A DNA stretch of 63,908 bases, counting the filler, from Rozella allomycis CSF55 (lineage: Eukaryota), in the NCBI GenBank assembly GCA_000442015.1. It is 5 parts of 5 records of this genome, joined end to end, with 100 filler letters (N's around TTAATTAATTAA, not from the genome) between each part and the next. Parts side by side here need not be neighbours in the genome. Positions count along the whole stretch, not along the records: positions 27,339 to 59,020 come from KE561194.1; 4 more parts are not named here. The stretch is one strand, 5' to 3'. Every line of letters begins with the position of its first letter. Within the stretch, counting starts at the first letter, position 1. The position numbers were made by a program, and so were the translations under genes. Below are positions 10,243-49,435 of this stretch, one piece after another. The notes under the pieces were generated by a model. The model saw only the letters and a program-made list of their open reading frames with translations. It made no database searches and had not been told where the DNA came from.

Positions 10243-11037
10243 TTATTGCAAAATTTTAAGTTCTATCAACCTATTAGATAATGTTTTCTCAATCAATTCT
10301 TTCGCGATTGATGCAATGTCTTTAGGTGGTTCATCCACTAGGCCTTTAACCGTTTTGGAAGAACCAGTGCATTTAATTTTGTTTATCTAAACAAAATGAG
10401 GCCTTAAACTTACATTTTTCTCATGGCAAAGACTTTTTGAATGGAAAACAAACATATACGTACACGTTTTCTCTTCCGTAACACTGTATAAATGATCCAT
10501 TTCATGATGCCCACATTCAAACTAATTTTTGAAACAAAGTTTGGTTACTTTGACTATTGATGTTCTAGAAATATCTTTTCCAATATCACATGGTGTACCA
10601 TTAGAAAAATACTGATAGTAAGTCCCATTGACAATATCTGCTTTTTCATAGTTTCCAAGGTTAAACTCGTCAAGTTTATTGCTTGATTGATGGAATTGCC
10701 TAGTTTTCATTTTGTAGCAGTACTCAAATGTCCAGTAATTCATTTTCTATTACTAATAACTATTCTGATTTACCAGCTGAAAACACTTTCCCTTCAAACC
10801 TTGAAAGGTTTCTTTATTTAGCTCTACTGGTTTATTTTCAGAGGACTCAACGCTTTTCGGGAACTCGCAATAAATTTCTTTTCCTGTTGGAAGTTTCATT
10901 TTTATACCATTCGTAGAGTTCTTATTAAATCATAGCATATGATTTACTACAGATTTTTTATACTCAATACCATAGTAAACATCCTGAATGGATAAACCCG
11001 ATACGGATATAAGAAAGAACAAGGAACTGAATATCAT
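10243..11037 (-). CDS. OS-9/Yos9-like MRH (PRKCSH) domain ER lectin; 4 short introns
   Basis: Signal peptide; YWTFEYCY..RQFH, YQYFSNGTPCDI..R...VKFEC and C.YMFVFHS..LC motifs. Confidence 0.75.
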
Positions 11038-11094
11038 TACGGTCTACGGAATTTTCTAAATTTGTACATTCTTTTTTTGTTGACTAATTATTGG

Positions 11095-11661
11095 ATGAAA
11101 CAATTGTTTTATTTTAGAAATACTTTTCGAGAATATTCATTGATACCGTTTTCACGAATTTCATCCTTCAATGAAATCCCTGACCCAAAACATACAATAT
11201 CATCATTTATCAAAGGTGTATACATAAGGGATGAAATTGGTTCATACAAAGTTGCTTCTTATTCAATACTATTTCCATTTTACGAAGAATATAATGAATG
11301 TGGAAAGGCTTTGCTTTCTATTGTAACTCGTCGAAGAGTCCAATTATTTGCACTTAACAAAGCCATTATGGTCGCTGATGCTATGAATCCGAGTTTTAGC
11401 ATGTCTTTGAGGGTTTTTACTGAATCTCAAAGTCTGTCACGCTTAATTAATGAAACCATTTATGAGTACGCTGCCAACAAATGGTTCATTAAAAATACTA
11501 CAACTCCAGTGAAAGATTATGATATCCTAAGAGTAATATATTTAGCGAAACAAAAACGCGATATAAAATTAAAGCATGTGATAATATCCGAAGATTCAAC
11601 AAGTTGGTTTAACAAGAACAATCAGTTAGCAGAAGATTTGGCGATGAGCGTTTATAAATGA
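11095..11661 (+). CDS. RNase H1-fold protein with substituted catalytic residues (probable pseudo-enzyme)
   Basis: Collinear by eye with 12555-13133: YSILFPFYEEYNECG vs YAVIFPFHKDLNEHG; TRRRVQLFALNKA vs TNNRAEMFAIIKA; LRVFTES vs LKIYTDS; NQLAEDLA vs NRKADELA. Confidence 0.7.
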   Translation: MKQLFYFRNTFREYSLIPFSRISSFNEIPDPKHTISSFIKGVYIRDEIGSYKVASYSILFPFYEEYNECGKALLSIVTRRRVQLFALNKAIMVADAMNPSFSMSLRVFTESQSLSRLINETIYEYAANKWFIKNTTTPVKDYDILRVIYLAKQKRDIKLKHVIISEDSTSWFNKNNQLAEDLAMSVYK

Positions 11662-11720
11662 CTTAATGCTTTAGTAATGGCTACACATTGACTTATTGCT
11701 AATAAATTCATTTTTCATAT

Positions 11721-12380
11721 TTATTGCTTTTGAAGTGCAGAATGCAGATGTTCTTGAATTTCTTCAATATTTTCTGAACCGTAAACCATAGCAATGAAGT
11801 GGGCTAATTTATCTATTGGATATTCAACATATGCCCTAGCGCCCCAAGAGTAATAAGTTTGATCATCTATAGCACCATCCTTAATTTTCATTCTATCCAG
11901 GTAATTCTGTTTTATCAAATCTGTTAAAACTTCCGGTATCTTTTGCCCGAATTCTGTGTCTTGTGATATGTTAATATCAAGGGCATCTTCCAGAGACTTG
12001 TTTAATTCACCCTGCGACAATTTATTATCATTCAAAGCAACAAAAGCCAAAATAAAACTTATCAAGCCTACTTTAGGTAGAAATGGATACAAATTTTTAG
12101 CATCTTTATACGTTTCTTGGACAACTTCTGCATATTCTGCACTTTCCCTATTTATCAAAATAAACGAATTTTTTTTCTTGTCCGCTTTTACAAGTTCAAA
12201 ACCAAATGTTTCTTTTAGTTTGCGATTGGTTTCATCAACTAGAACGTCAAATGAGCCTCTATGGTCTTTCAGCAGTGTCTGGCGAATGATATCCTTTTTG
12301 ATTAGTTGTTTTTTGTTTTCTAAAAATATAGCATGTCTGGCAAATGCAATAGATGTATCTTCATAGTCTTCATTCGCCAT
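11721..12380 (-). CDS. NSE3: MAGE-family / Nse3 subunit of the Smc5/6 complex
   Basis: IKKDII, LKETFGFELV, SFILIN, KVGLISFILAFV, LIKQNYL and YYSWGARA MAGE motifs. Confidence 0.85.
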   Translation of the reverse strand: MANEDYEDTSIAFARHAIFLENKKQLIKKDIIRQTLLKDHRGSFDVLVDETNRKLKETFGFELVKADKKKNSFILINRESAEYAEVVQETYKDAKNLYPFLPKVGLISFILAFVALNDNKLSQGELNKSLEDALDINISQDTEFGQKIPEVLTDLIKQNYLDRMKIKDGAIDDQTYYSWGARAYVEYPIDKLAHFIAMVYGSENIEEIQEHLHSALQKQ

Positions 12381-12554
12381 TATGCACTTCGCAAAATTAC
12401 TTTTACTTTTTTAGAAAAAAGAAAAATAGGGTTAAAAGGATTATTTAAATTTTAAAATACTTAAAAAATATATAAACCATTATCACATGTTTGTGCCTTC
12501 AATTATTTAGTGGCTTCACTGATCGTTCCGAAAAGGTATATTTGTAAATTCAGT

Positions 12555-13133
12555 ATGCACATTGTCAGAATGAAACTTTTTCAGAAAGGATCATCATTTA
12601 TGAAAGAATCCCTTAGAGAATATAGTAATTTTTCAAAGTTGGTTATTCCTGCCTTTACGGACGGAAGCTGCTTAAATAATGGTCAAAAAGATACATACGC
12701 CGGTTACGCAGTCATATTTCCATTCCACAAGGATTTAAATGAACATGGCTGTATTCCTGTTAATACTAATAATAGGGCTGAAATGTTCGCAATTATAAAA
12801 GCATGCCAAATATTTGAAGAATTCGATAAAGATAAACAACATACCCTGAAAATATATACAGACTCTAAATTATGTGTGCAAACATTCAATTCTTGGATGG
12901 AAAAATGGAAAAACGAGAACTGGCAAAAGTCAACCAATGGGGCGATTCAAAATCTTGACTTTGTTCAAATAATGTATGATCTCAAAATGAGACTAGGGGA
13001 TAGAATAATTGTTAAGCATGTATTCGCGCATACAAAGGGGAAAGACTTTAAAAGTCGTTGGAATAGGAAGGCTGACGAATTGGCTAGATTGGGTGCATTG
13101 GAAACAAAAGAAAATAAATTCTTTGATTGTTGA
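12555..13133 (+). CDS. Ribonuclease H1 (catalytic domain only, intronless)
   Basis: FTDGSCLNNG, TNNRAE, IYTDS, HVFAH and WNRKADELA provide the complete DEDD set; start codon uncertain (12555/12570/12600). Confidence 0.9.
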   Translation: MHIVRMKLFQKGSSFMKESLREYSNFSKLVIPAFTDGSCLNNGQKDTYAGYAVIFPFHKDLNEHGCIPVNTNNRAEMFAIIKACQIFEEFDKDKQHTLKIYTDSKLCVQTFNSWMEKWKNENWQKSTNGAIQNLDFVQIMYDLKMRLGDRIIVKHVFAHTKGKDFKSRWNRKADELARLGALETKENKFFDC

Positions 13134-22861: not shown

Positions 22862-25375
22862 ATGAGTGACCCGTTTTCATCTTCAACTCCTCAAAAATTA
22901 AGCACAAATAGAAAGTCAAAATTTTGCATAGAGAGCGAGAGTTTTGCATCAACCCCTGTTAGGCCAGAACTTATTGAAGCAATTAAGCACGGTGCATTTG
23001 ACAAAATGGATTCCGAAGATAGTGAAGAAAACAAGTTGATGTTTGTTGCTGAGCTGGGCTCATCTGTCCTTTCATATTCAAAAGAGTTAGAAGAAAAATT
23101 GCAAGAGACCATGGTTGAATATGAAAAGGCACAAAATTTAATAATAGAGTTGCAAGAACAAAATAGAATGATGCAAATTCGAGAGTTAAAGACAGCAGAA
23201 GCTACAAAAAACTTGTTGCTTAAAATGAACAGTTTAGAGCATGAAAGGAACGAAAATGTGACTAAAATAACCACGCTAGAGAATCGATTAAAAAGAAAGG
23301 ACAATGAAACTACCAGTTTGAGAAAACAGCTTTGGGATTTAGAGAGGAAAGTTGAAGAGGTTTCTGTTTCTGAAAATCAACTATTAAACATGCAATCTAC
23401 ACTAGAAGGTAGCCACGACGCAGAAATTATAAAATACAAAAGATCATTGACAGAATTAAAGAAGGAAAATTTTGAGTTGAGAAGAATACTAGACGAAGAG
23501 AAAAAGATTGAATCACCTGTGCCTCAAAGTGTCGAGAATTCTAAAAGTGAAACCATCAAATCAAATAAAGATGAAATGAATAAATTAATAATGGACTTGG
23601 CAGCAGCTGAGGAGAAAAATTTGCAGCTAGAAAATGAACTTAACGATATTAAGATAAATTATAACGAATTGAATGAAATCCTTTTAGAGTCACAGCAAGT
23701 CATTGAATCCTTTCAAAATGAAAAATACGCAACATTATCTCCTAGGTCTCCAGTCATGTCAAAGTCTAGTTCTAAGAGAATTAGTTTGATGGATGAATCG
23801 ATGGTTCTAATTAAAACGGAAAATAAAGAGGTTCAAGTTAATGAAAAAGACTTTTATTTTGTCGACGCTACAAAAGTTCATGCCCCTCAAGAGGCAGTAT
23901 CCACTGAGCCACCGATTGTGACAGTTTACAGTGATCCCATCAACTCAACAGACAAAGTCAATGTCAATGAAAAAGACTCCAATGAAGATAAATCATGTCA
24001 AATTCATGAGAAGATTATTGAAACAGCAGAGACTGAAAATGAGAAATATGACAGTTTGAAGACTACAGACACAATTCAAGTTGACAAGGAATCAAATTTA
24101 CATGAAATAGATCATTTAGACTTGACAATTAAAAAATCAACGTCATTTAGTTTGATGGATAACGTTAAAGATTTATCTGATGCACTAAAGGGCGTCGAAA
24201 TAGATTTATCAAAGTCATACGTCAATGAAGCTTCTATTAATAAATGTTTGTCTACAACCCCATTGGAGAACGATAGCGCTTTGGCGAGTGCCTCACTAGA
24301 ATTGGATCCTGAAAGATTGGAACGAATGAAAAAGAACATTTTAAATTTGAATCAAGAAAACAATTTAAACGGTACAAATTTATGACTTTCTCTCAATGCT
24401 TAGATCTTATTGGGAAAACTGAATTGGACAATATCGAGACATTTGGATCAAATTCGGTTTCTTTTCTAAAGTCGCTAGAGTTTGTTGATGGAACTCATGA
24501 TATTTCCACTGTTTTAAACTTGAGTGATTCCTTTTCAAATCTCGAACCAAAACCTTTAGCCAAAAAACGCGCGCCAAAAAAATTCAGAAATTTTAGTTTA
24601 CAGAAATGGAAAACTGAACGCCCTGCAAGGCGAGTATTTTCGCAAACAAATCAAAATGACTCAAAGGCGGATCCAGAGGAATATTCAACTAGCTCCATTA
24701 CTTCTAACTTGCACAATCCAATCACTACCATGAATCCTTCCGCTTTGGTAAACTCCATTTCTTTAATGATGGCTGGCACTTGGATGTACAAATTTCCAAG
24801 AACTAAAAACTCCCTTTGGAAAAAAAGTGATGATGTTTTGCCGGTGAAAAATTTACACAAAAGATTCTTTATAATCAATCCGTTTACAATGTCCATTATG
24901 TGGGGCGATGCCGAACCAAATGTTTGTCAGAAAACAAAGTCTGGTATGCCCTCCTAAATACTTTCATCTTAGCAAGAATAGTTGGCGTCCACGCTGAATT
25001 AAAGAAATTGCCAAAGCTTCACAATAAATCCAGTTTCAATCACGTTCAAAAGAATACAATGTCCGCATCCAATTCTCAAGTCGACATAACCCAGCTAATT
25101 GACGGTGACACAATCCGAACCAAAAGACTGGGAACAAATGAAACAGATCGCGAAGTTTTAGCGATAATCGTCAAAACAAGCAACTTGCTGCGCCCCAGGG
25201 ATGAGCTTTGCCTTGTTCCAATTTCCGTTTTTGATCAACAAACTTGGCTTCAGGTATACACAATCATTTCATGAATACACAGGGTTTAACAGTTTTGATA
25301 GAATCCAAGGAACAAAATAGAAACCTTCTAGAAAAATTTTCATTTATAGAAAACAAAAATTCTACATCAAATTAA
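22862..25375 (+). CDS. Num1/Mcp5-like cortical protein (coiled coil plus C-terminal PH); 3 introns
   Basis: AELG..L followed by a long coiled coil; MMAGTWMYKF..LHKRFFIINPFTMSIMW resembles the Mcp5/Num1 PH domain. Confidence 0.7.
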
Positions 25376-27598: not shown

Positions 27599-28672
27599 TA
27601 CATTTTGAGGTTTCTTTTATTAGACTTNATTCCGGGTGGACGGATACATTTTGATGTTTCTTTTAGACTCATTGGTTCAATCGACCATCATCACTGCCAC
27701 TTTACAAATAGCGATCTTAACATCTTAATCTTTCTATAAACTTCAATATTCATTGTTATCAACTGAAATAAGACATTTTCAGAAACTTCAATATTCATTG
27801 TTGTCAATTGAAATGAGACATTTCTCGTTGATTGATTCTTAAGCCTACCAAAGGTTGTTATCTGGATCGAAGACTTAAGTCGACAGAGCGAATTTTGTCT
27901 CCAACATTGACTTAGTTACAGAAGCCCACCAAAAGTTGTTAATTGATCATTACTACCTTCTCATGAAAAATTATTAACCAAGAATATATAATACGATAAC
28001 TTTGATCGAGAAACAGAGGGTTGCTTGATTCAACAAAGCAAATGCTTTCTCCAACGTGTGTCGCAAACTCGGTGAGGACCATGCAATTGACGTAAGGTCA
28101 ATATTAACCAATATTAACCTCAATTGTGTTAATAGAGATTTCATCAGAAGTCTTTGTCAAAAGGAAATTGTTACAATTTTTCAAACGAGCATAATAATAA
28201 AAGTTAAAATACGTAATGAGTATAGCCGTAGGTTTTCACAGTTCAAAGCTCTTTACTTGCAGGTATTCGCCAATCGAACAAATGTTTTAAAAGAGAATAT
28301 AAAATTATTTGGGCAATTTAGTTTATAGTTTAATAAATGCAATGTTTAAGTACCTGAGCAAGATCAAGATGCCGCAACCCACACAAGAGACAAATAGTTC
28401 ACACTTCACTCTTTATAAATATAAAACCGTAATAGTAATTCTCATTACTACAATAAATTGCAATACAACACTTAAATATGCATTTGAATAATCTAAATAA
28501 ATTGACAACCCCATATGAATTATTACGCTAAGCTACGCTCAGAAATCTTGTATGGCCAGGGAATTGCAAAATGTTGTTTTCTTTACGATTAATTGAAACT
28601 GGTGTTTTTGAAGTAATCATTGAGCTCAAAAGAATATTTCTATTTATAGTTCCGCAAATTAGGAAACTTGCA

Positions 28673-29566
28673 ATGTTGATTGCACTAAATTTTTTATTCT
28701 TATTCGGTTTCATAAATGGCTACATAAACTCTGTCCGGCATGTGAAATGTTCTTATCCCTCACACCAAGAGGATAACGATTGTGTAGAGCTACTAGCAAA
28801 GGTAAATGTTAAGGTATTGTATCACAAATCCATTCCTTTTGCCATCGCCCAATATTGCCAAAGTAAAATTGAGATATCATTTAGAGGAAGTATGGATTTT
28901 GATGACTGGCTAGTCAATCTTAACTTTTCCCCAACAGCAAATCAAGAAACGATTATACCCGGAAATATAGCAGTGCATTCTGGTTTTTACAAAAAGGCAA
29001 TTGAAATACTTCCAATTTTATCCAATTATCTTGAAGATAACCTTGAAATTTTACAGTCACATGCAATCATCTTTGCTGGTCACTCTCAAGGTGGAGCTCT
29101 TGCTACTGTTACAGCTATGATATTGAATGATTTTTATAATTTTAAATCTGTCGTTGTTTACACTTTTGGATGTCCCAAGATATTCTTTTCACAAGTGGAT
29201 GAATTCTGGAAATATCGCATTTTTAGGTTTGTTCTTTCAGGGGATCCAATCGTGAATATGCCACCTTTGCTTCGTCACGCAGGAAAAGAAATATTAATGG
29301 AATCACCGGAAGGGAAGTTTAGCTCTTTAAAATTGTTGAATGGCGTGGGATCTTTAGGATCTACAATATCAAATGCGATCTCAACTTTTCAAAGTCCTAA
29401 GAAAATGGAAGCCTCAGAGATATTAAAAACGTGTCTTAATACATTAAAAGAAGCCTCTGAAAAATGTAGACCTGTCACAAATGCCATCAGATCGCATAGC
29501 ATTATAGCCTACGAAAAGGGTCTAGACCTTTTTAGAGATCAAATTGAAATTCAAATCAAACAATAA
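28673..29566 (+). CDS. Secreted class-3 lipase, copy 1 (intronless)
   Basis: Signal-like N-terminus; SFRGS, VHSGF, GHSQGG, YTFGCP, DPIV..PP and C-terminal His. Confidence 0.9.
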   Translation: MLIALNFLFLFGFINGYINSVRHVKCSYPSHQEDNDCVELLAKVNVKVLYHKSIPFAIAQYCQSKIEISFRGSMDFDDWLVNLNFSPTANQETIIPGNIAVHSGFYKKAIEILPILSNYLEDNLEILQSHAIIFAGHSQGGALATVTAMILNDFYNFKSVVVYTFGCPKIFFSQVDEFWKYRIFRFVLSGDPIVNMPPLLRHAGKEILMESPEGKFSSLKLLNGVGSLGSTISNAISTFQSPKKMEASEILKTCLNTLKEASEKCRPVTNAIRSHSIIAYEKGLDLFRDQIEIQIKQ

Positions 29567-29707
29567 ATATTGATACTAATCACTATCACCATTCAAACCA
29601 TAATCACTTATCACTTATTGATTTTTCTTTGCTGACTCATTTGATGGGCGTGACAAAGTCCCTGCATATTTTGGCAGGTAACATGCTTGTGGCTGGTGTG
29701 AAAAAAG

Positions 29708-30652
29708 ATGAAAATATTTTGTTTGGCACTTATTTCCGTACTTTCTATTGTCTCATGTGAATTACTTCAGAAGTCTCTACGAAAAGTCTTGTATGCCACA
29801 CCGAAATACACAAACACCCCGGAATGTCAACACTACGTCAAAGAAACCAGATCAAAGATACTGTATCATGAAAACAAAGCTTTCGGGATGGTCCAGTCAT
29901 TTGAAGAAATGATAGAGATTACATTTCGAGGAACATACGACCTTGATGATTGGAAGATCAATTTAAGAATGAAGGAAGCAATTGCAACTAATTTAACGAA
30001 TATAAAAGTACATAAAGGTTTTTTAGAGAAAAGCATGAAATTATTGCCAATAGTGAAAAAGGCCATAAGTGACACACCGGGGTCTTCGAACAAAAAGCTC
30101 TTACTTACTGGGCATTCACAAGGAGGAGCATTAGCCATTCTAATTGGCATGGCGCTTTACTTTGAAGACAAATCCTTGAATATGAAGATTGTGACATTTG
30201 GTTGCCCAAAAATATTTTACTCTGAAATCGACAAAATATTTAACGACAAGATAACGCGAATAGAAGCTCCCCTAGATCCTGTTCCATTACTTCCTCCTTT
30301 TCTTAACCATGCCGGTAAACGTGTTGTAATTGGAGAAACACCGAACCCTTACGTTTTCTACATTGTCAAATGGGCTTCATTGATTTCATTTAGTATCATT
30401 ACACAGATGCTTAATCTCAGCACCGTCTCTAGCATAACACCGTCAATTGTAAAAATTCTCATAGAATCGAACGAGATAGAAAGTCTAAAATCAGCAAATT
30501 CCTTCATAACTGAAATGAAAATCATTTATCCAACTGCATTATACATTATTGTGTTTTTTGCCTACTCCTTAATACAATTGCTAAAAGCACATCAGACTCG
30601 ACGATACATGGCCGAATTACAGAATTCTCCGAACTTGAACATTAAATATTAA
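29708..30652 (+). CDS. Secreted class-3 lipase, copy 2 (intronless)
   Basis: Signal peptide; TFRGT, VHKGF, GHSQGG, TFGCP and DPVPLLPP. Confidence 0.9.
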   Translation: MKIFCLALISVLSIVSCELLQKSLRKVLYATPKYTNTPECQHYVKETRSKILYHENKAFGMVQSFEEMIEITFRGTYDLDDWKINLRMKEAIATNLTNIKVHKGFLEKSMKLLPIVKKAISDTPGSSNKKLLLTGHSQGGALAILIGMALYFEDKSLNMKIVTFGCPKIFYSEIDKIFNDKITRIEAPLDPVPLLPPFLNHAGKRVVIGETPNPYVFYIVKWASLISFSIITQMLNLSTVSSITPSIVKILIESNEIESLKSANSFITEMKIIYPTALYIIVFFAYSLIQLLKAHQTRRYMAELQNSPNLNIKY

Positions 30653-32542: not shown

Positions 32543-32774
32543 AGTTATTTGTACAGGAATTAATAGCTAGACTGCCTAGAGCTTTGATTATTGAATTATT
32601 GAGAATATAGTTTTTAATTTATATTGAGAGAAACTAAAGATTTCAAGTTAAGAAAATAAAAATCCATATTTTCTATTGAACGTTTAATAACCCGTTTACA
32701 ACATTATTTTATTTCCAATGTTCCATTTTATTACTTCCTGCTGTCTTTCCCAATCTTTTCAGGATAACCGGGGT

Positions 32775-35700
32775 ATGTCACTTTTTGAGCAAGAAGAAGA
32801 CGCATTTTCCGCGTTCCAAGTGAGTTCAACCGACTACGTGGCACCAGTTCCACTTAAGCGCGGCACTGACGAAGAGATCTATCCGTTTCCCAAGAGCGCG
32901 CGCCTGTCTAAAGCGACGCAGGTGATGGATGAGTTTTCGACGCGGGTAATTTACTGTATAATGCTTCAATATAGGTAAAATAATTTTTTCATAATTATCT
33001 AGGTAAAATAATGTGGGAGAGATGAGCAGGTTGAGCGGGAGGTGCAAGAGGGCGAGAAAAAGTCTCAGATCACGCATAGTGTGCGCCACGAGGTAGCGAT
33101 ACCTGAGGGGTTTGAGTATGTGCCTTTGAGTGAGCATGAGAGTCCGAGTGAGCCTTTTCGGAGGTATCCGTTTACGCTTGATCCGTTCCAGCAGTGTAGT
33201 GTGAGTTGTATTGAGAGGAACGAGAGTGTGTTGGTGAGTGCGCATACATCAGGTAAGGGAGATTGAGTTTTTTGAGGAGGTATTTAATGGGGATGGTGGT
33301 AATGATAGCTGGAAAGACAGTGATTGCCGAGTATGCGATTGCGATGGCGCTGAAGAAGAAGCAGCGGGTGATATATACGAGTCCGATCAAGGCTCTTAGT
33401 AACCAAAAGTACCGCGAGTTCCATCATGAGTTTGGCGATGTTGGGTTGATGACTGGAGAAGTTACGATTAACCCAACTGCGTCGTGTTTGGTGATGACGA
33501 CGGAGGTAAGAAAATAGAAAACAAGAGATAGATTTTGAGGAGTATGTTGTATAGGGGCAGTGAGGTGATGCGAGAAGTCGGATGGGTTGTGTTTGACGAG
33601 GTGCATTATATGAGAGACAAGGAGCGAGGAGTTGTTTGGGAGGAGACTCTTATCCTGTTGCCTGACCAGGTGCGGTATGTGTTCTTGTCGGCGACGATTC
33701 CGAATGCCAAGCAGTTTGCCGAGTGGATCTGTTGTGTGCACCACCAGCCGTGTCATGTGGTGTATACAGATTATAGGCCGACGCCGTTGCAGCATTATTT
33801 GTTTCCTGCTGGTGGCGATGGGATCCATTTGGCTGTAGATGAGAAGGGTGTGTTTCGGGAGGATAATTTTGTGAAAGCGTTGAGTGTGTTGGGCGATGAT
33901 ACGGTGTTGGGAGGCAAGAAGAAAAGGAAGCCTACAAAGAATGGTAAAGAGAGTGATTGAAGAGTATAGGGCCTTCTGATTTGTTTAAGATTGTGAAGAT
34001 GATAATGATGAAGAACTACCAGCCCGTTATAGTGTTTAGTTTTTCGAAAAAGGAGTGTGAGGCGAATGCGACGCAGATGTCAAAGTTGGATTTTAATGGT
34101 GAGGAGGAGAGGATGATGGTTGGCAAGATATTTAATAATGCGATGGAGGCGTTGAGTGAGGATGATAGACAGTTGGCTCAGATTGAGAATATATTACCGT
34201 TTCTGAAGAGGGGGATTGGTATCCATCATTCAGGTGAGAGAGTATGTAAAGAAAGAAAGGATTGTTACCGATATTGAAGGAGGTGATAGAGTTGTTGTTT
34301 CAGGAGGGGTTGTTGAAGGTTTTGTTTGCGACTGAGACGTTTTCGATTGGACTGAATATGCCAGCAAAGACTGTAGTGTTTACTAATTCGAGAAAGTTTG
34401 ATGGAAGGGATTTTAGATGGATTAGCAGTGGAGAGTATATCCAGATGAGTGGGAGAGCTGGAAGGAGAGGGTTGGATGATAGAGGGATTGTTATATTGAT
34501 GTTGGATGAGAAGATGGAGCCAACAGTAGCCAAGAACATGATAAAGGTAATAGCATGTAGTTGTAGTGAAGACTAGGTAAGCAAGTAGTTCTAGTGAAGA
34601 CTAGGTATTGAATTTAAATCAAATATAATAAAAGGGACAAGCTGATGCATTGAATAGTGCTTTCCATTTGAGTTANCAAGCTGATGCATTGAATAGTGCA
34701 TTCCATTTGAGTTATAATATGATATTGAATTTGATTAGAGTTGAAGTAATAGATGATTGAATGTTTGATGAAGGGGATGTCACCAGAAGATATTTTAGAG
34801 AAATCATTTTATCAATTCCAGAACAATGATTCATTGCCAAATTTGGAGAATCAGTTGAATGAGTTGATTGAAAGAAGAAAAGGATTGAAGATTGAACAAG
34901 AAGAAACAATTTCTGAATATTATGAAATAAAACAAGTAAAAGAGATTTAATATTGTAATGAAGCAATTGGAGGTGTTGAAGAAGGATTTTAAGATGATAA
35001 TTCATCATCCCACGAATATTTTACCATTTTTGCAAGTTGGCAGATTGGTTAAAATAAAGCATGAAAATGATGATTTTGGATGGGGATGTTTGGTTAATTT
35101 TATTAGAAAGAAAAAGATTGAAAAAGACAAGGGTAATCTATTACAAGTATGATGATAGAAACAAGTGAGATTTATATAATAGAAGTCTTGTTGAATTGTC
35201 AAAAGAATTCAGCTATTCCAAAGCCTTGTTTAAATGATAAAGGAGAGATGATTGTTGTTCCAGTTGTTTTGGAGAGTTTAGATGCTGTTTCTAAAGCGAG
35301 AGTTTATTTGCCAAAAGATTTAAAGAGTTATGAGAATAGGCAATCAATGTACAAGACAATTGAGCAAGTTAAAAAGAGACTAGGTAAGGAAGTGGGGGTT
35401 GTGTTTAACGTAGGTAAGAAGAAGTTAGTATAGTTAAACTAGGTAATCTATTTCTTCTCTAACATTATTATAGGTAATTCATTCTACTTTCACCTCGATG
35501 TAAGGGACTATTCCATTGTTGGATCCAGTAAAGGATATGAATATTCAAGATGAAAATTTAAAAAAATTAATAAAAAAGATGAACACGTTGGAAATTAAAT
35601 TGGAAGAAAACAAACTCTTCAATTCTCCAAATCTTTCTTCAATTTATAATTCATTTGAAGAAAAAGTTAATTTAGAAAATGAAATCAAATTAATCAAAAA

Positions 35701-36552
35701 TTTAATCAAACAAACAACGTGTATTCTTCACATGGATGAACTAAAATGCAGAAAGAGAGTTTTAAGAAGATTAGAATTCACAAGTCCATCTGATGTCATT
35801 GAAATCAAAGGTAACAGAAGTTTTGAAGGTTTCAACTTAGGTAACAGAGGTTTAAAGTTTCAACTTAGGTAACAGAGGTTGAAATAGTTAACCTCTAGGT
35901 ACCAATCATTTCAACTCATAAATTCTAGGTACAAATCATTTCAACTCTTAAATTCTAGGTACAAATCATTTCCTCTCATAAATTCTAGGTAGAGTAGCGT
36001 GCGAAATTAGCTCCGGTGATGAACTTTTATTAACTGAATTGATCTTCAACGGCGCCTTCAATGATCTCACTGTAGATCAAATAAACGCTCTCCTCTCTTG
36101 TTTTGTCTTTCAAGAAAAATCTGAAGACAATTCAAAACTAAAATCTGAATTAGCAAAACCTCTTAAACTATTACACGACACTGCCAGAAAAATAGCCCAA
36201 GTTTCAAAGGAATCAAAATTAAACATCAATGAAGAAGACTATGTTAATTCTTTCAGACCTGAATTAATGGATGTTGTTTACGCTTGGTCTCAAGTAGATG
36301 TTTCAATTTGAAATTATTTAGGGTGCAAAGTTTTCGCAGATTTGTAAAATGACTGATGTGTTTGAAGGATCTATCATTAGATGCGTTAGAAGATTGGAAG
36401 AATTGTTGAGACAAATGACTATGGCTGCTAAATCTATCGGTAACACTGAACTAGAAAATAAGTTTGCTCAAGGTATTCAATAATTGTTTCTTTCAATAGG
36501 TATCAACAAGATTAAACGTGACATTGTTTTCACCAACTCTCTCTATCTATAA
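32775..36552 (+). CDS. MTR4: Ski2-like nuclear exosome RNA helicase Mtr4; 13 introns, 5 of them composite
   Basis: [84 protein letters not shown] and C-terminal IKRDIVF..SLYL. Confidence 0.97.
32946..33029 (+). other. Composite intron of 3 GT-AG units (29+28+27 nt)
   Basis: 32946-32974, 32975-33002, 33003-33029; removing all three gives DEFSTR-VEREVQE. Confidence 0.85.
33253..33308 (+). other. Composite intron of 2 units (27+29 nt)
   Basis: 33253-33279, 33280-33308; removal restores Walker A SAHTSAGKT. Confidence 0.85.
34547..34634 (+). other. Composite intron of 3 units (30+28+30 nt)
   Basis: 34547-34576, 34577-34604, 34605-34634; restores [13 protein letters not shown]. Confidence 0.88.
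35384..35504 (+). other. Composite intron of 4 units (30+29+31+31 nt)
   Basis: 35384-35413, 35414-35442, 35443-35473, 35474-35504; restores [13 protein letters not shown]. Confidence 0.88.
35811..35988 (+). other. Composite intron of 6 units (30+28+30+30+30+30 nt)
   Basis: Units start at 35811, 35841, 35869, 35899, 35929 and 35959; restores [11 protein letters not shown]. Confidence 0.9.
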
Positions 36553-36686
36553 ATTAAGTAGTTTTAAGTATAATTAAAGAGTTTTAGCGTAATTCTGAGA
36601 ATAGTTTAAACTCTTTTTGAAATAGTTTACCCACTTCCCTTTAAAACCCACATTCTGTTGTACACAAAAATTAAAAAACTTTATTT

Positions 36687-37740
<1,054 letters not shown>

Positions 37741-39060: not shown

Positions 39061-39161
39061 TCAATAAAATAAATAAATTTGCAGATTTTCATTTTATACG
39101 ATGCTACTTTTTTTGTTGTTTATCTGAGATTTGGTGGCGCAATAATTAAGTGGCACAGCAG

Positions 39162-40094
39162 ATGCAAATATTTTCACTAGCTCTTCTTTTCTGTATCTCC
39201 AGCATATTCGCATTTGAAAATGTTTCGCGCTCTGTTAAAAATATACGATGCGCTTATCCCAAATTTTATCAGACACCGGAGTGTGTAGATTACATTCAAA
39301 CAACAAAGTCCATGGTGATGCTATACAAAACTATTCCATTTGCTCTAGTTCAATATACAGAAGTAGAACTAGAAATAGCTTTTAGAGGAAGCTCGACTGT
39401 AGATGACTGGGTTGTAAACCTCAGTTTGCTGTCTGCTGAACTCGAGCCCGCCATCATGCAAGGAAACATTACGGTTCACAGTGGGTTCTATAAAAAGTCA
39501 CTTAAACTACTGCCTTCTGTTAAAACTGCTATTAATACATTTAGGTCTATGTATCAGATTGATAGATATGTGTTTTCAGGTCATTCACAAGGAGGTGCTT
39601 TGGCTGTGATCACATCGCTGTTGGTGAAAGACTGGTTCCTGGAGCTTAACGAACACTTTAATTTTGTTGTATATACTTTTGGTTCTCCTAAATTGTTTTT
39701 TGGTGATATTTCGCAGGAAGTTCATGATAAAATCTACAGGTTCATAACCCCCAGTGACCCAGTGCCGGAGCTCCCGCCTCTTATGAACCATGGTGGCAAA
39801 GAAATAGTGCTGTCAAAATCAAAAACTACTTCAAGAGTCCTTAAAACTCTAAAGAAATTTGTGATCTCCATATCAATGGGCGTAGCGTTGAACACCGTTA
39901 CTTCATACATTAATTTTCCACCAAAGGAAAATGATAAAGATGAGAAAAAAGAACAAAGCTTGTCTAAGGTATTTAATGGAATTGCCACTGGTGTCGGTAT
40001 TGTCGCTCTTGCAAAAATGTTGATCCAAGATCATTTAACGCCGGCATATGAAAAAGCAGTCAAAAAGTTTGTTGACAGGTTAAAAATATATTAA
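39162..40094 (+). CDS. Secreted class-3 lipase, copy 3 (intronless)
   Basis: Signal peptide; AFRGS, VHSGF, GHSQGG, YTFGSP and DPVPELPP. Confidence 0.9.
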   Translation: MQIFSLALLFCISSIFAFENVSRSVKNIRCAYPKFYQTPECVDYIQTTKSMVMLYKTIPFALVQYTEVELEIAFRGSSTVDDWVVNLSLLSAELEPAIMQGNITVHSGFYKKSLKLLPSVKTAINTFRSMYQIDRYVFSGHSQGGALAVITSLLVKDWFLELNEHFNFVVYTFGSPKLFFGDISQEVHDKIYRFITPSDPVPELPPLMNHGGKEIVLSKSKTTSRVLKTLKKFVISISMGVALNTVTSYINFPPKENDKDEKKEQSLSKVFNGIATGVGIVALAKMLIQDHLTPAYEKAVKKFVDRLKIY

Positions 40095-48194: not shown

Positions 48195-48439
48195 ATAAAA
48201 AGTTAAACGTTAAATCACATGAATTTCTGTTCTATTTTATTCTTGATTGAAAACAATGATTTGACATTAGCAATGAGGGTACAATGAGGAAAGGATGGAT
48301 TAGCAAAGAATTGAATCAAGGGACATCGTGACATCGTCTGATTCTTAAAAAGATGAGAAACTGATTATTTAAATAATAATAAAAGAACACATCAAAAGGC
48401 TCAGGGTCACGTTGTGTAAGAACAGTTTATTTTGATTGA

Positions 48440-48793
48440 TTAACGCCCAAGAACGTCATTACGAGTAGTTTCAGCAATAGCAAGAATGGAATCAATATGT
48501 TCGGAATTGACTTTCAAGTCTTTCATAGCATCTCCAAGAGTGCGAATGACAGTGTCAAAGTGTGCGTCAGTTAATTTCAATTTAGCATGAGCAGCTTTCA
48601 TCGATTTGCCATTGTATGGTTTTCCGCCAAGTACATGGTTGAGAAAGCTCTTTTGCATTCTTCTTTGTTTATTCATATCTGTGTTAGCGAATATAAGTGC
48701 AACCGATTCATTTTGTAGGAGTTTGGAATAAAACAGTTCGACAACAGCGTCAATTGCCTTTTCACCTCCAATTTGTTCGTATAAACTTGCCAT
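48440..48793 (-). CDS. Group I (trHbN-type) 2/2 truncated haemoglobin, copy 1
   Basis: SLYEQIGG..AVV..FY, Q..MQ..FL..VLGG..Y.G.SM..AH..L.LT..HFD pattern. Confidence 0.92.
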   Translation of the reverse strand: MASLYEQIGGEKAIDAVVELFYSKLLQNESVALIFANTDMNKQRRMQKSFLNHVLGGKPYNGKSMKAAHAKLKLTDAHFDTVIRTLGDAMKDLKVNSEHIDSILAIAETTRNDVLGR

Positions 48794-48994
48794 AGTAATT
48801 GTTACCTAGTTACGGCCAGGGTTCAATATATGGCGCCAAAATCAATGGTCTAGACTCAAAGCTCACGTGATGATTGGGAATTGATAAATAAAGAGTTTCG
48901 TATATTACGTCATAATAATATATGCATAACACATAGCAATTGTAGAGAAAACACTGGAATGATTTATTTTAAGCGATGTAAGTTGATTTATTGA

Positions 48995-49348
48995 TTAGCG
49001 TCCCAGAACATCATTACGTGTGGTCTCTGCGACAGCAAGTATAGAATCAATATGTTGTGGACTTACTTTTAATTCCTTCATTGCTTCTCCCAAAGTTCGG
49101 ATGACAGTGTCAAAGTGTGCGTCAGTCAGCTTCAATCTAGCATGCGCAGCTTTCATGGATTTGCCATTGTATGGTTTTCCGCCTAGAACATGATTGAGAA
49201 AACTTTTTTGCATTCTTCTTTGTTTATTCATGTCAGTGTTGGCGAATATGGGGATCATGGTGTCCACTTTTAACAATTTAGTGTAAAAAAGCTCAACTAC
49301 AGCATCAATCGCCTTTTCTCCTCCAATTTCGTCGTAAAGATTGGTCAT
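48995..49348 (-). CDS. Group I 2/2 truncated haemoglobin, copy 2
   Basis: Same motifs; close paralog of 48440-48793. Confidence 0.92.
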   Translation of the reverse strand: MTNLYDEIGGEKAIDAVVELFYTKLLKVDTMIPIFANTDMNKQRRMQKSFLNHVLGGKPYNGKSMKAAHARLKLTDAHFDTVIRTLGEAMKELKVSPQHIDSILAVAETTRNDVLGR

Positions 49349-49435
49349 CAGATTTAAATCAGATAGTATGCAGGGGTCACAATCATGTTCGCGCCAAATT
49401 TATAGGTTTGAAATTTGGAAATTTAAAAATCATGT

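Follow-up and report, generated by a model that had tools for sequence, protein, structure and literature searches.

Six head-to-tail mini-intron-like units at one site of the Rozella allomycis MTR4 gene, with alleles that differ by whole units

Rozella is the sister lineage of the microsporidia. The subject of this report is an intervening sequence in the gene for an MTR4/SKIV2L2-type exosome helicase of Rozella allomycis CSF55, located in a stretch of 63,908 nt (filler included) that joins five parts of five records of assembly GCA_000442015.1; this whole stretch is called the window, and all positions count along it. Two exons of the gene are separated by 178 nt consisting of six head-to-tail GT..AG units in two repeat families, and this observation is confirmed. 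The first-pass annotation of the window had described the interval as a six-unit intron of MTR4 that shows how introns are born, namely by tandem duplication of whole introns. Its coordinates and its unit structure were exact, and the units are referred to below as U1 to U6. The MTR4 gene has eight single mini-introns (26-28 nt) and five arrays of such units at its intron sites, and the features concerned are listed in Table 1.

Table 1. Positions of the MTR4 gene, its unit arrays and related features in the window (PWM, position weight matrix score)
Feature	Position	Strand	Remarks
MTR4/SKIV2L2-type exosome helicase gene	32691-36551	+	13 intron sites; 5' end uncertain; stop TAA 36549-36551
Probable three-unit array, near MTR4 5' end	32946-33029	+	29, 28, 27 nt; acceptor 33026 or 33029
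Two-unit array	33253-33308	+	27, 29 nt; identity 0.50; removed whole in P0002 (...HTSAGKT...)
Three-unit array	34547-34634	+	30, 28, 30 nt; units 1/2 identity 0.84, unit 3 unrelated; removed whole in P0002
False duplication of MTR4 exon, 39 nt (13 codons)	34638-34676	+	ends in single N; absent from P0002
Four-unit array	35384-35504	+	30, 29, 31, 31 nt; first two purine-rich, last two pyrimidine-rich
Upstream MTR4 exon	35505-35810	+	end ...ATCAAAG; tblastn, Piromyces MTR4 P0015 residues 815-914
Six-unit mini-intron-like array	35811-35988 (178 nt)	+	phase 1, between codons K-G|R-V of MTR4
U1	35811-35840, 30 nt	+	family A; PWM 12.5
U2	35841-35868, 28 nt	+	family A; PWM 12.6
U3	35869-35898, 30 nt	+	family A; PWM 10.4
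U4	35899-35928, 30 nt	+	family B; PWM 7.6
U5	35929-35958, 30 nt	+	family B; PWM 8.2
U6	35959-35988, 30 nt	+	family B; PWM 7.6
Downstream MTR4 exon	35989-36293	+	start GTAGAG; tblastn, P0015 residues 915-1015
Two-unit array, adjoining FHA/forkhead gene	37449-37504	-	28, 28 nt; second unit starts GTAC
Single N positions at centre of 2.0-copy tandem repeats	34676, 1510, 7472, 17943, 31890, 46842, 49625, 51155, 58728, 59853		

The exon 33532-33942 shows 100% identity over its full length to P0002, an NCBI protein named P-loop containing nucleoside triphosphate hydrolase protein, partial [Rozella allomycis CSF55]. In the tblastn search with the Piromyces protein P0015, the residues ...DVIEIKG close the exon upstream of the array and the very next residue opens the downstream exon, with none missing. 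The spliced model, from which the 13 intervening intervals and one 39-nt assembly artefact were taken out, comprises 1025 codons with 0 internal stops and reaches the C-termini of both fungal homologues. It is identical to P0002 at 587/587 positions and to P0015 at 617/926, and the alignment to P0015 continues without a break (±4 residues) across 11 of 14 joins, the 178-nt join included; the three non-contiguous joins fall in poorly conserved stretches. Removal of the 178 nt, a length that is not a multiple of 3, joins ...IEIKG to RVACEIS... and restores both frame and homology, as for an intron. Because the resulting alignment to fungal MTR4 (P0015 and P0021) is free of gaps, all 178 nt must leave the mRNA, and the whole array thus lies outside the mature message, as had been proposed. 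An Rfam search of the window returned just three tRNAs and no match at the array.

Mini-introns are the normal intron class of the window. A dynamic-programming splicing model in which just GT..AG introns of 24-33 nt were allowed produced long open frames for the other window genes, with eight modelled introns each in Sec10, Mo25 and a DEAH helicase, five each in an MFS transporter and a PX/Vps5 sorting nexin, and two in a trehalase. The 81 mini-introns that the models contain outside MTR4 measure 24-33 nt, the majority (65 of 81) 26-29 nt. Their donors are mostly GTAA (58), followed by GTAT (12), GTAG (4) and GTAC (2), and their acceptors are TAG (38), AAG (35) and CAG (8). GT..AG intervals that bridge open reading frames (ORFs) peak only at 26-29 nt, there is no continuum of intron lengths between 34 and 55 nt, and at the roughly 95 intron sites modelled in the window every required interval above 33 nt is divisible into units. 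Plain ORF-flank criteria and pairwise ORF bridging were too noisy above 40 nt and were dropped. Regarding the branch point, the 81 reference introns yielded no sufficiently enriched motif; TTAA, the highest-ranking 4-mer, is present in 26 against 17.7 expected. Putative introns of about 30 nt are also mentioned for the Rozella S23 gene in the passages of PMC6349667 that concern it. With units of 28-30 nt, the repeat period of the MTR4 array equals the normal intron size, since some 81 other introns of the window span 24-33 nt, and this part of the first-pass annotation holds.

Taken singly, each of the six units therefore has the ends and the length of a mini-intron of this class. All six start with GTA and end with TAG, and all five internal junctions read TAG|GTA, so that the donor would be regenerated as recursive splicing with zero-length exons requires. 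The AAAG|GT...AG|GT exon context claimed earlier was recovered as well, with AAAG at the upstream exon end and GTAGAG at the downstream start. A position weight matrix trained on 35 introns outside MTR4 gave the units scores of 7.6-12.6, compared with 6.7-13.1 for the single introns of MTR4 and 8-17 for most training introns. The donor is GTAA in U1-U3 and GTAC in U4-U6. Family A (U1-U3, 35811-35898) has the common start GTAACAGA; the likeness noted earlier for these units extends to a shared 5' part in all three, while the tail CAACTTAG occurs just in U1 and U2. For units 4-6 the earlier consensus was exact. Tandem Repeats Finder divided the region into a first array at 35809-35884 (period 28, 2.6 copies, 89% matches) and a second at 35894-35991 (period 30, 3.3 copies, 92% matches), and with head-to-tail units of these two periods the array lies within the minisatellite range of about 10-100 bp. 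Both repeat arrays extend just 2-3 nt into the exons, whose ends resemble those of the units, and exon sequence itself is not repeated; the repeat unit is thus a whole intron-sized GT..AG unit, in agreement with the earlier claim. As read by hand, U1 has no in-frame stop in the phase of the site, so that its retention alone would add 10 codons in frame, while retention of any of the other five units would give a stop or a frameshift.

We compared the units over their interiors, with the GTA and AG ends trimmed, against a background of 3000 random pairs of the 81 unrelated mini-introns (mean identity 0.53, 99th percentile 0.71). Within family A the identities are 0.84 (U1/U2), 0.72 (U2/U3) and 0.64 (U1/U3), within family B 0.92 (U4/U5), 0.88 (U4/U6) and 0.88 (U5/U6), and between the families 0.44-0.60. 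In all MTR4 arrays together, identity is above the 99th percentile of the background for 5 of 11 adjacent unit pairs and near the 95th percentile for two more (0.64, 0.65); the other four are at background (0.38-0.50) and nevertheless keep exact AG|GTA borders. The layouts are accordingly composite: A-A-A-B-B-B at 35811, A-A-B-B at 35384, A-A-B at 34547 and A-B at 33253. Recent duplication does not account for every unit, because U3|U4 and three other borders join dissimilar units; such units with exact borders point either to selected borders or to unrelated introns placed side by side, and in either case each unit would be an intron of its own. The earlier claim of tandem duplication is thus sustained for the five similar pairs and does not extend to the four borders without detectable similarity.

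Borders of this kind are also what independent insertions would give, and AG|GT is the classic proto-splice site, which raises the idea that the units are not local duplicates and belong to a family of mobile, introner-like introns that entered AG|GT sites again and again. When 18 units were searched against the 64-kb window, however, no significant match was found outside a unit's own array (we put one 15-nt match with E = 0.001 down to chance). The window thus contains no near-identical copies at unrelated sites, and similarity is strictly between neighbours. Within this window we therefore take the copying of units to be local and consider dispersal of a mobile intron very improbable. Taken together with the alleles described below, these data support tandem duplication and loss of whole mini-introns and a minisatellite-like behaviour of the site. 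What the first-pass annotation called a birth mechanism is accordingly supported in part, as whole-unit tandem duplication in place; the claim was too broad in that it included the origin of introns at new sites.

The six-unit array is accompanied by others (Table 1). The MTR4 intervals longer than 33 nt (84, 56, 88, 121 and 178 nt) can all be cut exactly into GT..AG units of 27-31 nt. The probable array at 32946-33029 joins the ORF 32691-32975 in frame to the first exon of P0002, at a junction outside the homologue alignments. Outside MTR4, the two-unit array at 37449-37504 lies between ORFs with Pfam FHA and Forkhead matches, which identify the FHA/forkhead gene, and no arrays were seen in the remaining gene models of the window. 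As a chance control we scanned both strands of 50 first-order Markov copies of the window (100 scans) for head-to-tail chains passing the weight matrix; these contained 107 chains of two units and 2 of three, and no chain reached four units. Arrays occupy 5 of 13 sites in MTR4 versus 1 of about 82 elsewhere in the window (Fisher P = 1e-4). Third codon positions flip inside the gene (33030-36551, plus strand), from 47% G and 9% A in 33532-33942 to 40% A and 5% G in the exon 35991-36293, with the switch near 34600-34700, and introns in the 5' half of MTR4 contain 0-1 C. Because the MTR4 region is compositionally odd, a regional mutational cause for the concentration of arrays in MTR4 and its neighbor is possible.

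Contigs from four sequencing runs (X1, X2, X4 and X5; DNA-type) were aligned on 34700-36600 and differ in unit number at two arrays. An X4 contig of 3,740 nt spans 35698-36555 with one 1-nt gap and carries six units at 35811, and the X1 main contig likewise has six, with 16 differing positions and one inserted base in U4-U6 relative to the window. In an X5 contig of 2,951 nt exactly 30 nt are missing at 35945, and the remaining unit is a U5/U6 recombinant; in a short X2 contig (97 nt) U5 runs straight into the exon, which is the same five-unit allele. At the four-unit array, contigs of X1, X2 and X5 repeat 35394-35418 with 3 letters between, giving 28 extra nt at 35384-35504 that correspond to one added U1-like unit and hence to a five-unit allele. 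The 2,951-nt contig of X5 is thus longer by one unit at the 35384 array and shorter by one at the 35811 array. No k-mer of 25 or more occurs twice in either array, and the window sequence would for that reason not be collapsed by a 31-mer assembly; identical neighboring units in another haplotype could collapse, and five units is for this reason to be read as at least five.

Variability within the units is high as well. Among the differences listed, the 299 nt of the two arrays account for 31 substitutions, five MTR4 single introns (137 nt) for 0 and the remaining 1465 nt for 9, which makes the arrays about 20-fold more variable than the rest. The comparison with the single introns gives a Fisher P of 8e-6. 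All 31 substitutions fall at unit positions 4 to L-5, leaving the first 3 and the last 5 bases untouched (P about 0.001 for the first-3 plus last-3 positions, if events are independent); both P values are optimistic, because many of the differences are linked in haplotype blocks. The listed indels are either of 1-2 nt or of whole units (28 or 30 nt), and the unit lengths that result from them (all five units at 35384-35504, U1 and the rebuilt U4-U6 allele) are 28-31 nt. The unit-number alleles, seen at the contig level, and the variability raised over the flanks are those of a minisatellite or variable number of tandem repeats locus. The copy-number polymorphism suspected in the first-pass annotation was thus found, with six versus five units at 35811 and four versus five at 35384-35504, and the arrays are hypervariable compared with the single introns. 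In the 3' flank, the X1 and X4 contigs both leave the window at 36555, four bases past the MTR4 stop, and continue with the same 30 unrelated letters, which indicates a second haplotype or arrangement of this flank.

The array could conceivably be an artefact in which allelic versions of one or two units were stacked during assembly, in the manner of the false duplications at single-N joins. Ten of the 20 single N positions in the window mark the middle of tandem repeats (2.0 copies, 25-359 nt), which look like unmerged contig overlaps, and one of these lies within MTR4 itself, where Tandem Repeats Finder reports 34637-34714 with period 39 and 2.0 copies. In addition, the locus is heterozygous, and U4-U6 of the window have no exact match in the X1 main contig. 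Against this, the array is free of N and of recurring k-mers of 25 or more, the independent X4 contig bridges all of it at the same length, every other haplotype seen has five or six units, and MTR4 contains four further arrays, two of which the protein model of a different assembly leaves out entirely. We consider an artefact the least credible of the explanations weighed here; an expansion private to this assembly, the outcome that would have spoken against the first-pass annotation, is not what the contigs show.

How the 178 nt leave the transcript is a separate question. We think it fairly probable that they represent six complete spliceosomal mini-introns adjoining via zero-length exons (AG|GT) and removed unit by unit. 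Each unit would bring its own donor and acceptor, the exon ends would recreate the same junction after each removal, and the units would be taken out one at a time by recursive splicing, not as 178 nt at once. With a donor and an acceptor in every unit and a junction recreated by the exon ends, any order of removal would end in one and the same message; a unit could therefore be gained or lost almost neutrally and the site would behave like a minisatellite, which fits the length alleles. Whole units would be gained or lost by slippage or by unequal exchange between neighboring units, a molecular route that we infer from the repeat structure; slippage and unequal crossover cannot be told apart here. 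The minisatellite behavior proposed in the first-pass annotation is supported, and its notion that the repeat is a functional intron is a probable reading of the same pattern.

The main rival is that the interval is one ordinary intron of 178 nt, spliced from the U1 donor to the U6 acceptor, with a minisatellite inside and internal sites that are unused. Introns of this length are spliced by intron definition in many eukaryotes, and every splicing route leads to the same mRNA, so that the gene model is blind to the route. The rare donor of U4-U6 and the youth of the copies among U4-U6 and U1-U2 (0.84-0.92), whose borders could survive unselected, would suit such an intron too. It fits less well with the intron lengths of the window, where none of the roughly 95 modelled sites has an uncuttable interval above 33 nt and the range between 34 and 55 nt shows no continuum. 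Furthermore, the borders are perfect at four junctions of dissimilar units, allelic substitutions avoid unit ends, indels either keep units at 28-31 nt or shift whole units, and competition with the outer sites would be expected from internal sites whose scores are those of real introns. Overall we see splicing as a single 178-nt intron as rather unlikely, with a chance that still has to be reckoned with. Stepwise removal appears most likely, because long introns of any other kind are absent from the window and the internal sites resemble real ones, and it is favored further by dissimilar adjacent units that keep exact AG|GT borders.

Several points weigh against stepwise removal and against the polymorphism attached to it. 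The GTAC donor of U4-U6 occurs in just 2 of the 81 other mini-introns, one of them the well-bridged intron 24372-24403, and these donors may be weak or unused. Young duplicates keep their GT/AG borders without selection, so the argument from borders rests on the four dissimilar junctions and the allele data. The polymorphism is based on de Bruijn contigs and on a variant table holding only the differences listed, X4 and X5 may derive from the very strain that the window represents, and the array of the window may be a mosaic of haplotypes, considering the 16 positions at which the X1 main contig differs in U4-U6.

A further way to splice the outer sites directly would be a fold-back, in which purine-rich 5' units pair with pyrimidine-rich 3' units and so bring the outer sites to mini-intron distance. 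Pairing of this kind is known for some long yeast introns. The six-unit and four-unit arrays are both purine-rich first and pyrimidine-rich after. The 178-nt RNA folds with -31.5 kcal/mol (z = -1.89; 8 of 200 shuffles fold as well), and the centroid structure of the four-unit array pairs unit 1 with 4 and unit 2 with 3. However, this latter array folds no better than its shuffles (z = 0.19; 109 of 200 fold as well), and the signal of the six-unit array is weak and partly due to a local U2-U3 hairpin. Alleles alter the paired segments without compensation visible in the difference tables, and the exact unit borders at 27-31 nt are left unexplained. We therefore regard the fold-back as improbable.

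Regarding other organisms, metagenome contigs scanned once with the exon after the array yielded 72 MTR4 loci, none of which was recognisable as a close Rozella relative. The site is intron-free in 55 of the 72, which read straight through ...KG, and three more are contiguous by eye with KA in place of KG; the remainder show a break. Five loci flagged with four or more GT..AG units were by eye chance chains in coding or unrelated sequence and not of the GTA...TAG type. Searches of a full-text collection in which subscription journals are thinly covered gave no description of head-to-tail arrays of spliceosomal mini-introns. Work by Zhuo et al., published in PNAS in 2007, reportedly traced human introns to tandem repeat arrays carrying splice sites; these arrays are said to have long units and to give alternative splicing and new introns in human genes. 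Like the MTR4 arrays, they reportedly have repeat units with donor and acceptor and a polymorphic length; unlike them, each Rozella array would be a series of whole introns of minimal size at one intron site of a mini-intron genome.

The Rogers model, in which an AGGT segment is duplicated in tandem and an intron gained, is described for vertebrate ATP2A1 (PMC3265369) and potato RdRp (PMC4974935). According to the passages of these papers on that model, tandem duplication there likewise provides extra donor/acceptor pairs, so that the added copy can be spliced and the mRNA is unchanged, and AG|GT flanks are present here too. In the model as those passages give it, exon sequence is duplicated and a new intron arises at a new site, whereas in MTR4 a complete intron is apparently copied repeatedly at an existing site, no exon is duplicated and the array is polymorphic. 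Recursive splicing via zero-length exons, or ratchet points, is described in the relevant parts of PMC2773006 and PMC4482092 for long introns of Drosophila and vertebrates. There, as would hold here, an internal AG|GT regenerates the donor and piecewise removal leaves no trace in the mRNA. The introns covered in those parts measure tens to hundreds of kilobases and have few conserved points, in contrast to a ratchet point every 30 nt or so, repeat units and a putative stepwise removal in MTR4. Ultrashort spliceosomal introns, which are treated for microsporidia, ciliates, dicyemids and myxozoans in sections of PMC13644364 and PMC6349667, share the narrow length class near the lower limit of the spliceosome; the word 'tandem' does not occur in the available text of PMC13644364, and the passages of PMC6349667 on Rozella and short introns contain nothing on tandem arrays. 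Stwintrons, the spliceosomal twin introns of filamentous fungi, are similar, as far as the consulted portions of PMC8469720 describe them, in having more than one U2-type intron per intervening sequence, consecutive splicing reactions and a tie to intron duplication. They differ in being nested with an obligatory order, while the Rozella units stand side by side, are complete and would be independent of order. What sets the MTR4 array apart from all these systems is the combination of an apparently complete minimal intron as the copied unit, copies that stay at a single site, whole-unit polymorphism and a genome with almost only introns of about 28 nt.

Elsewhere in the window, two tandem genes on the minus strand (48443-48805 and 48998-49399) each encode a complete bacterial-like (truncated) globin domain, and the stretches of about 100 nt behind them start similarly. 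Apparent minus-strand introns of 102 nt (48361-48462) and 113 nt (48954-49066) were rejected, as they lie behind these two separate complete genes. Three intron-free class-3 lipase paralogues are located on the plus strand at 28532-29563, 29702-30649 and 39150-40091, two of them adjacent. Retroelement remnants were found on the plus strand at 213-686 and 10996-13130, with a retroviral polymerase SH3-like domain in one ORF and RNase H in two ORFs, and several N-gapped repeats occupy the start of the window.

The multiplication of introns is a long-standing question, and clear young cases are rare. At the MTR4 locus, entire introns of minimal size apparently multiply and disappear in place, with one-unit allele differences at two sites of one gene, in a host whose introns are near the lower size limit of the spliceosome. 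As a speculation to which we give only a slight chance, the Rozella spliceosome might be length-limited to about 24-33 nt, so that longer intervals persist only as chains of mini-introns, and the concentration of arrays in MTR4 might serve as a splicing timer with feedback through exosome decay of the gene's own pre-mRNA; up to six spliceosome cycles at one site would then delay maturation of the mRNA for this nuclear RNA-surveillance helicase. For annotation, the finding means that gene finders with a fixed intron-length model miss such sites or record odd 'long' introns. Should splicing proceed unit by unit, the locus would represent natural recursive splicing at maximal density, would offer a direct test of whether mini-intron spliceosomes have an upper length limit, and would show that a neutral length polymorphism can consist of differences in intron number.

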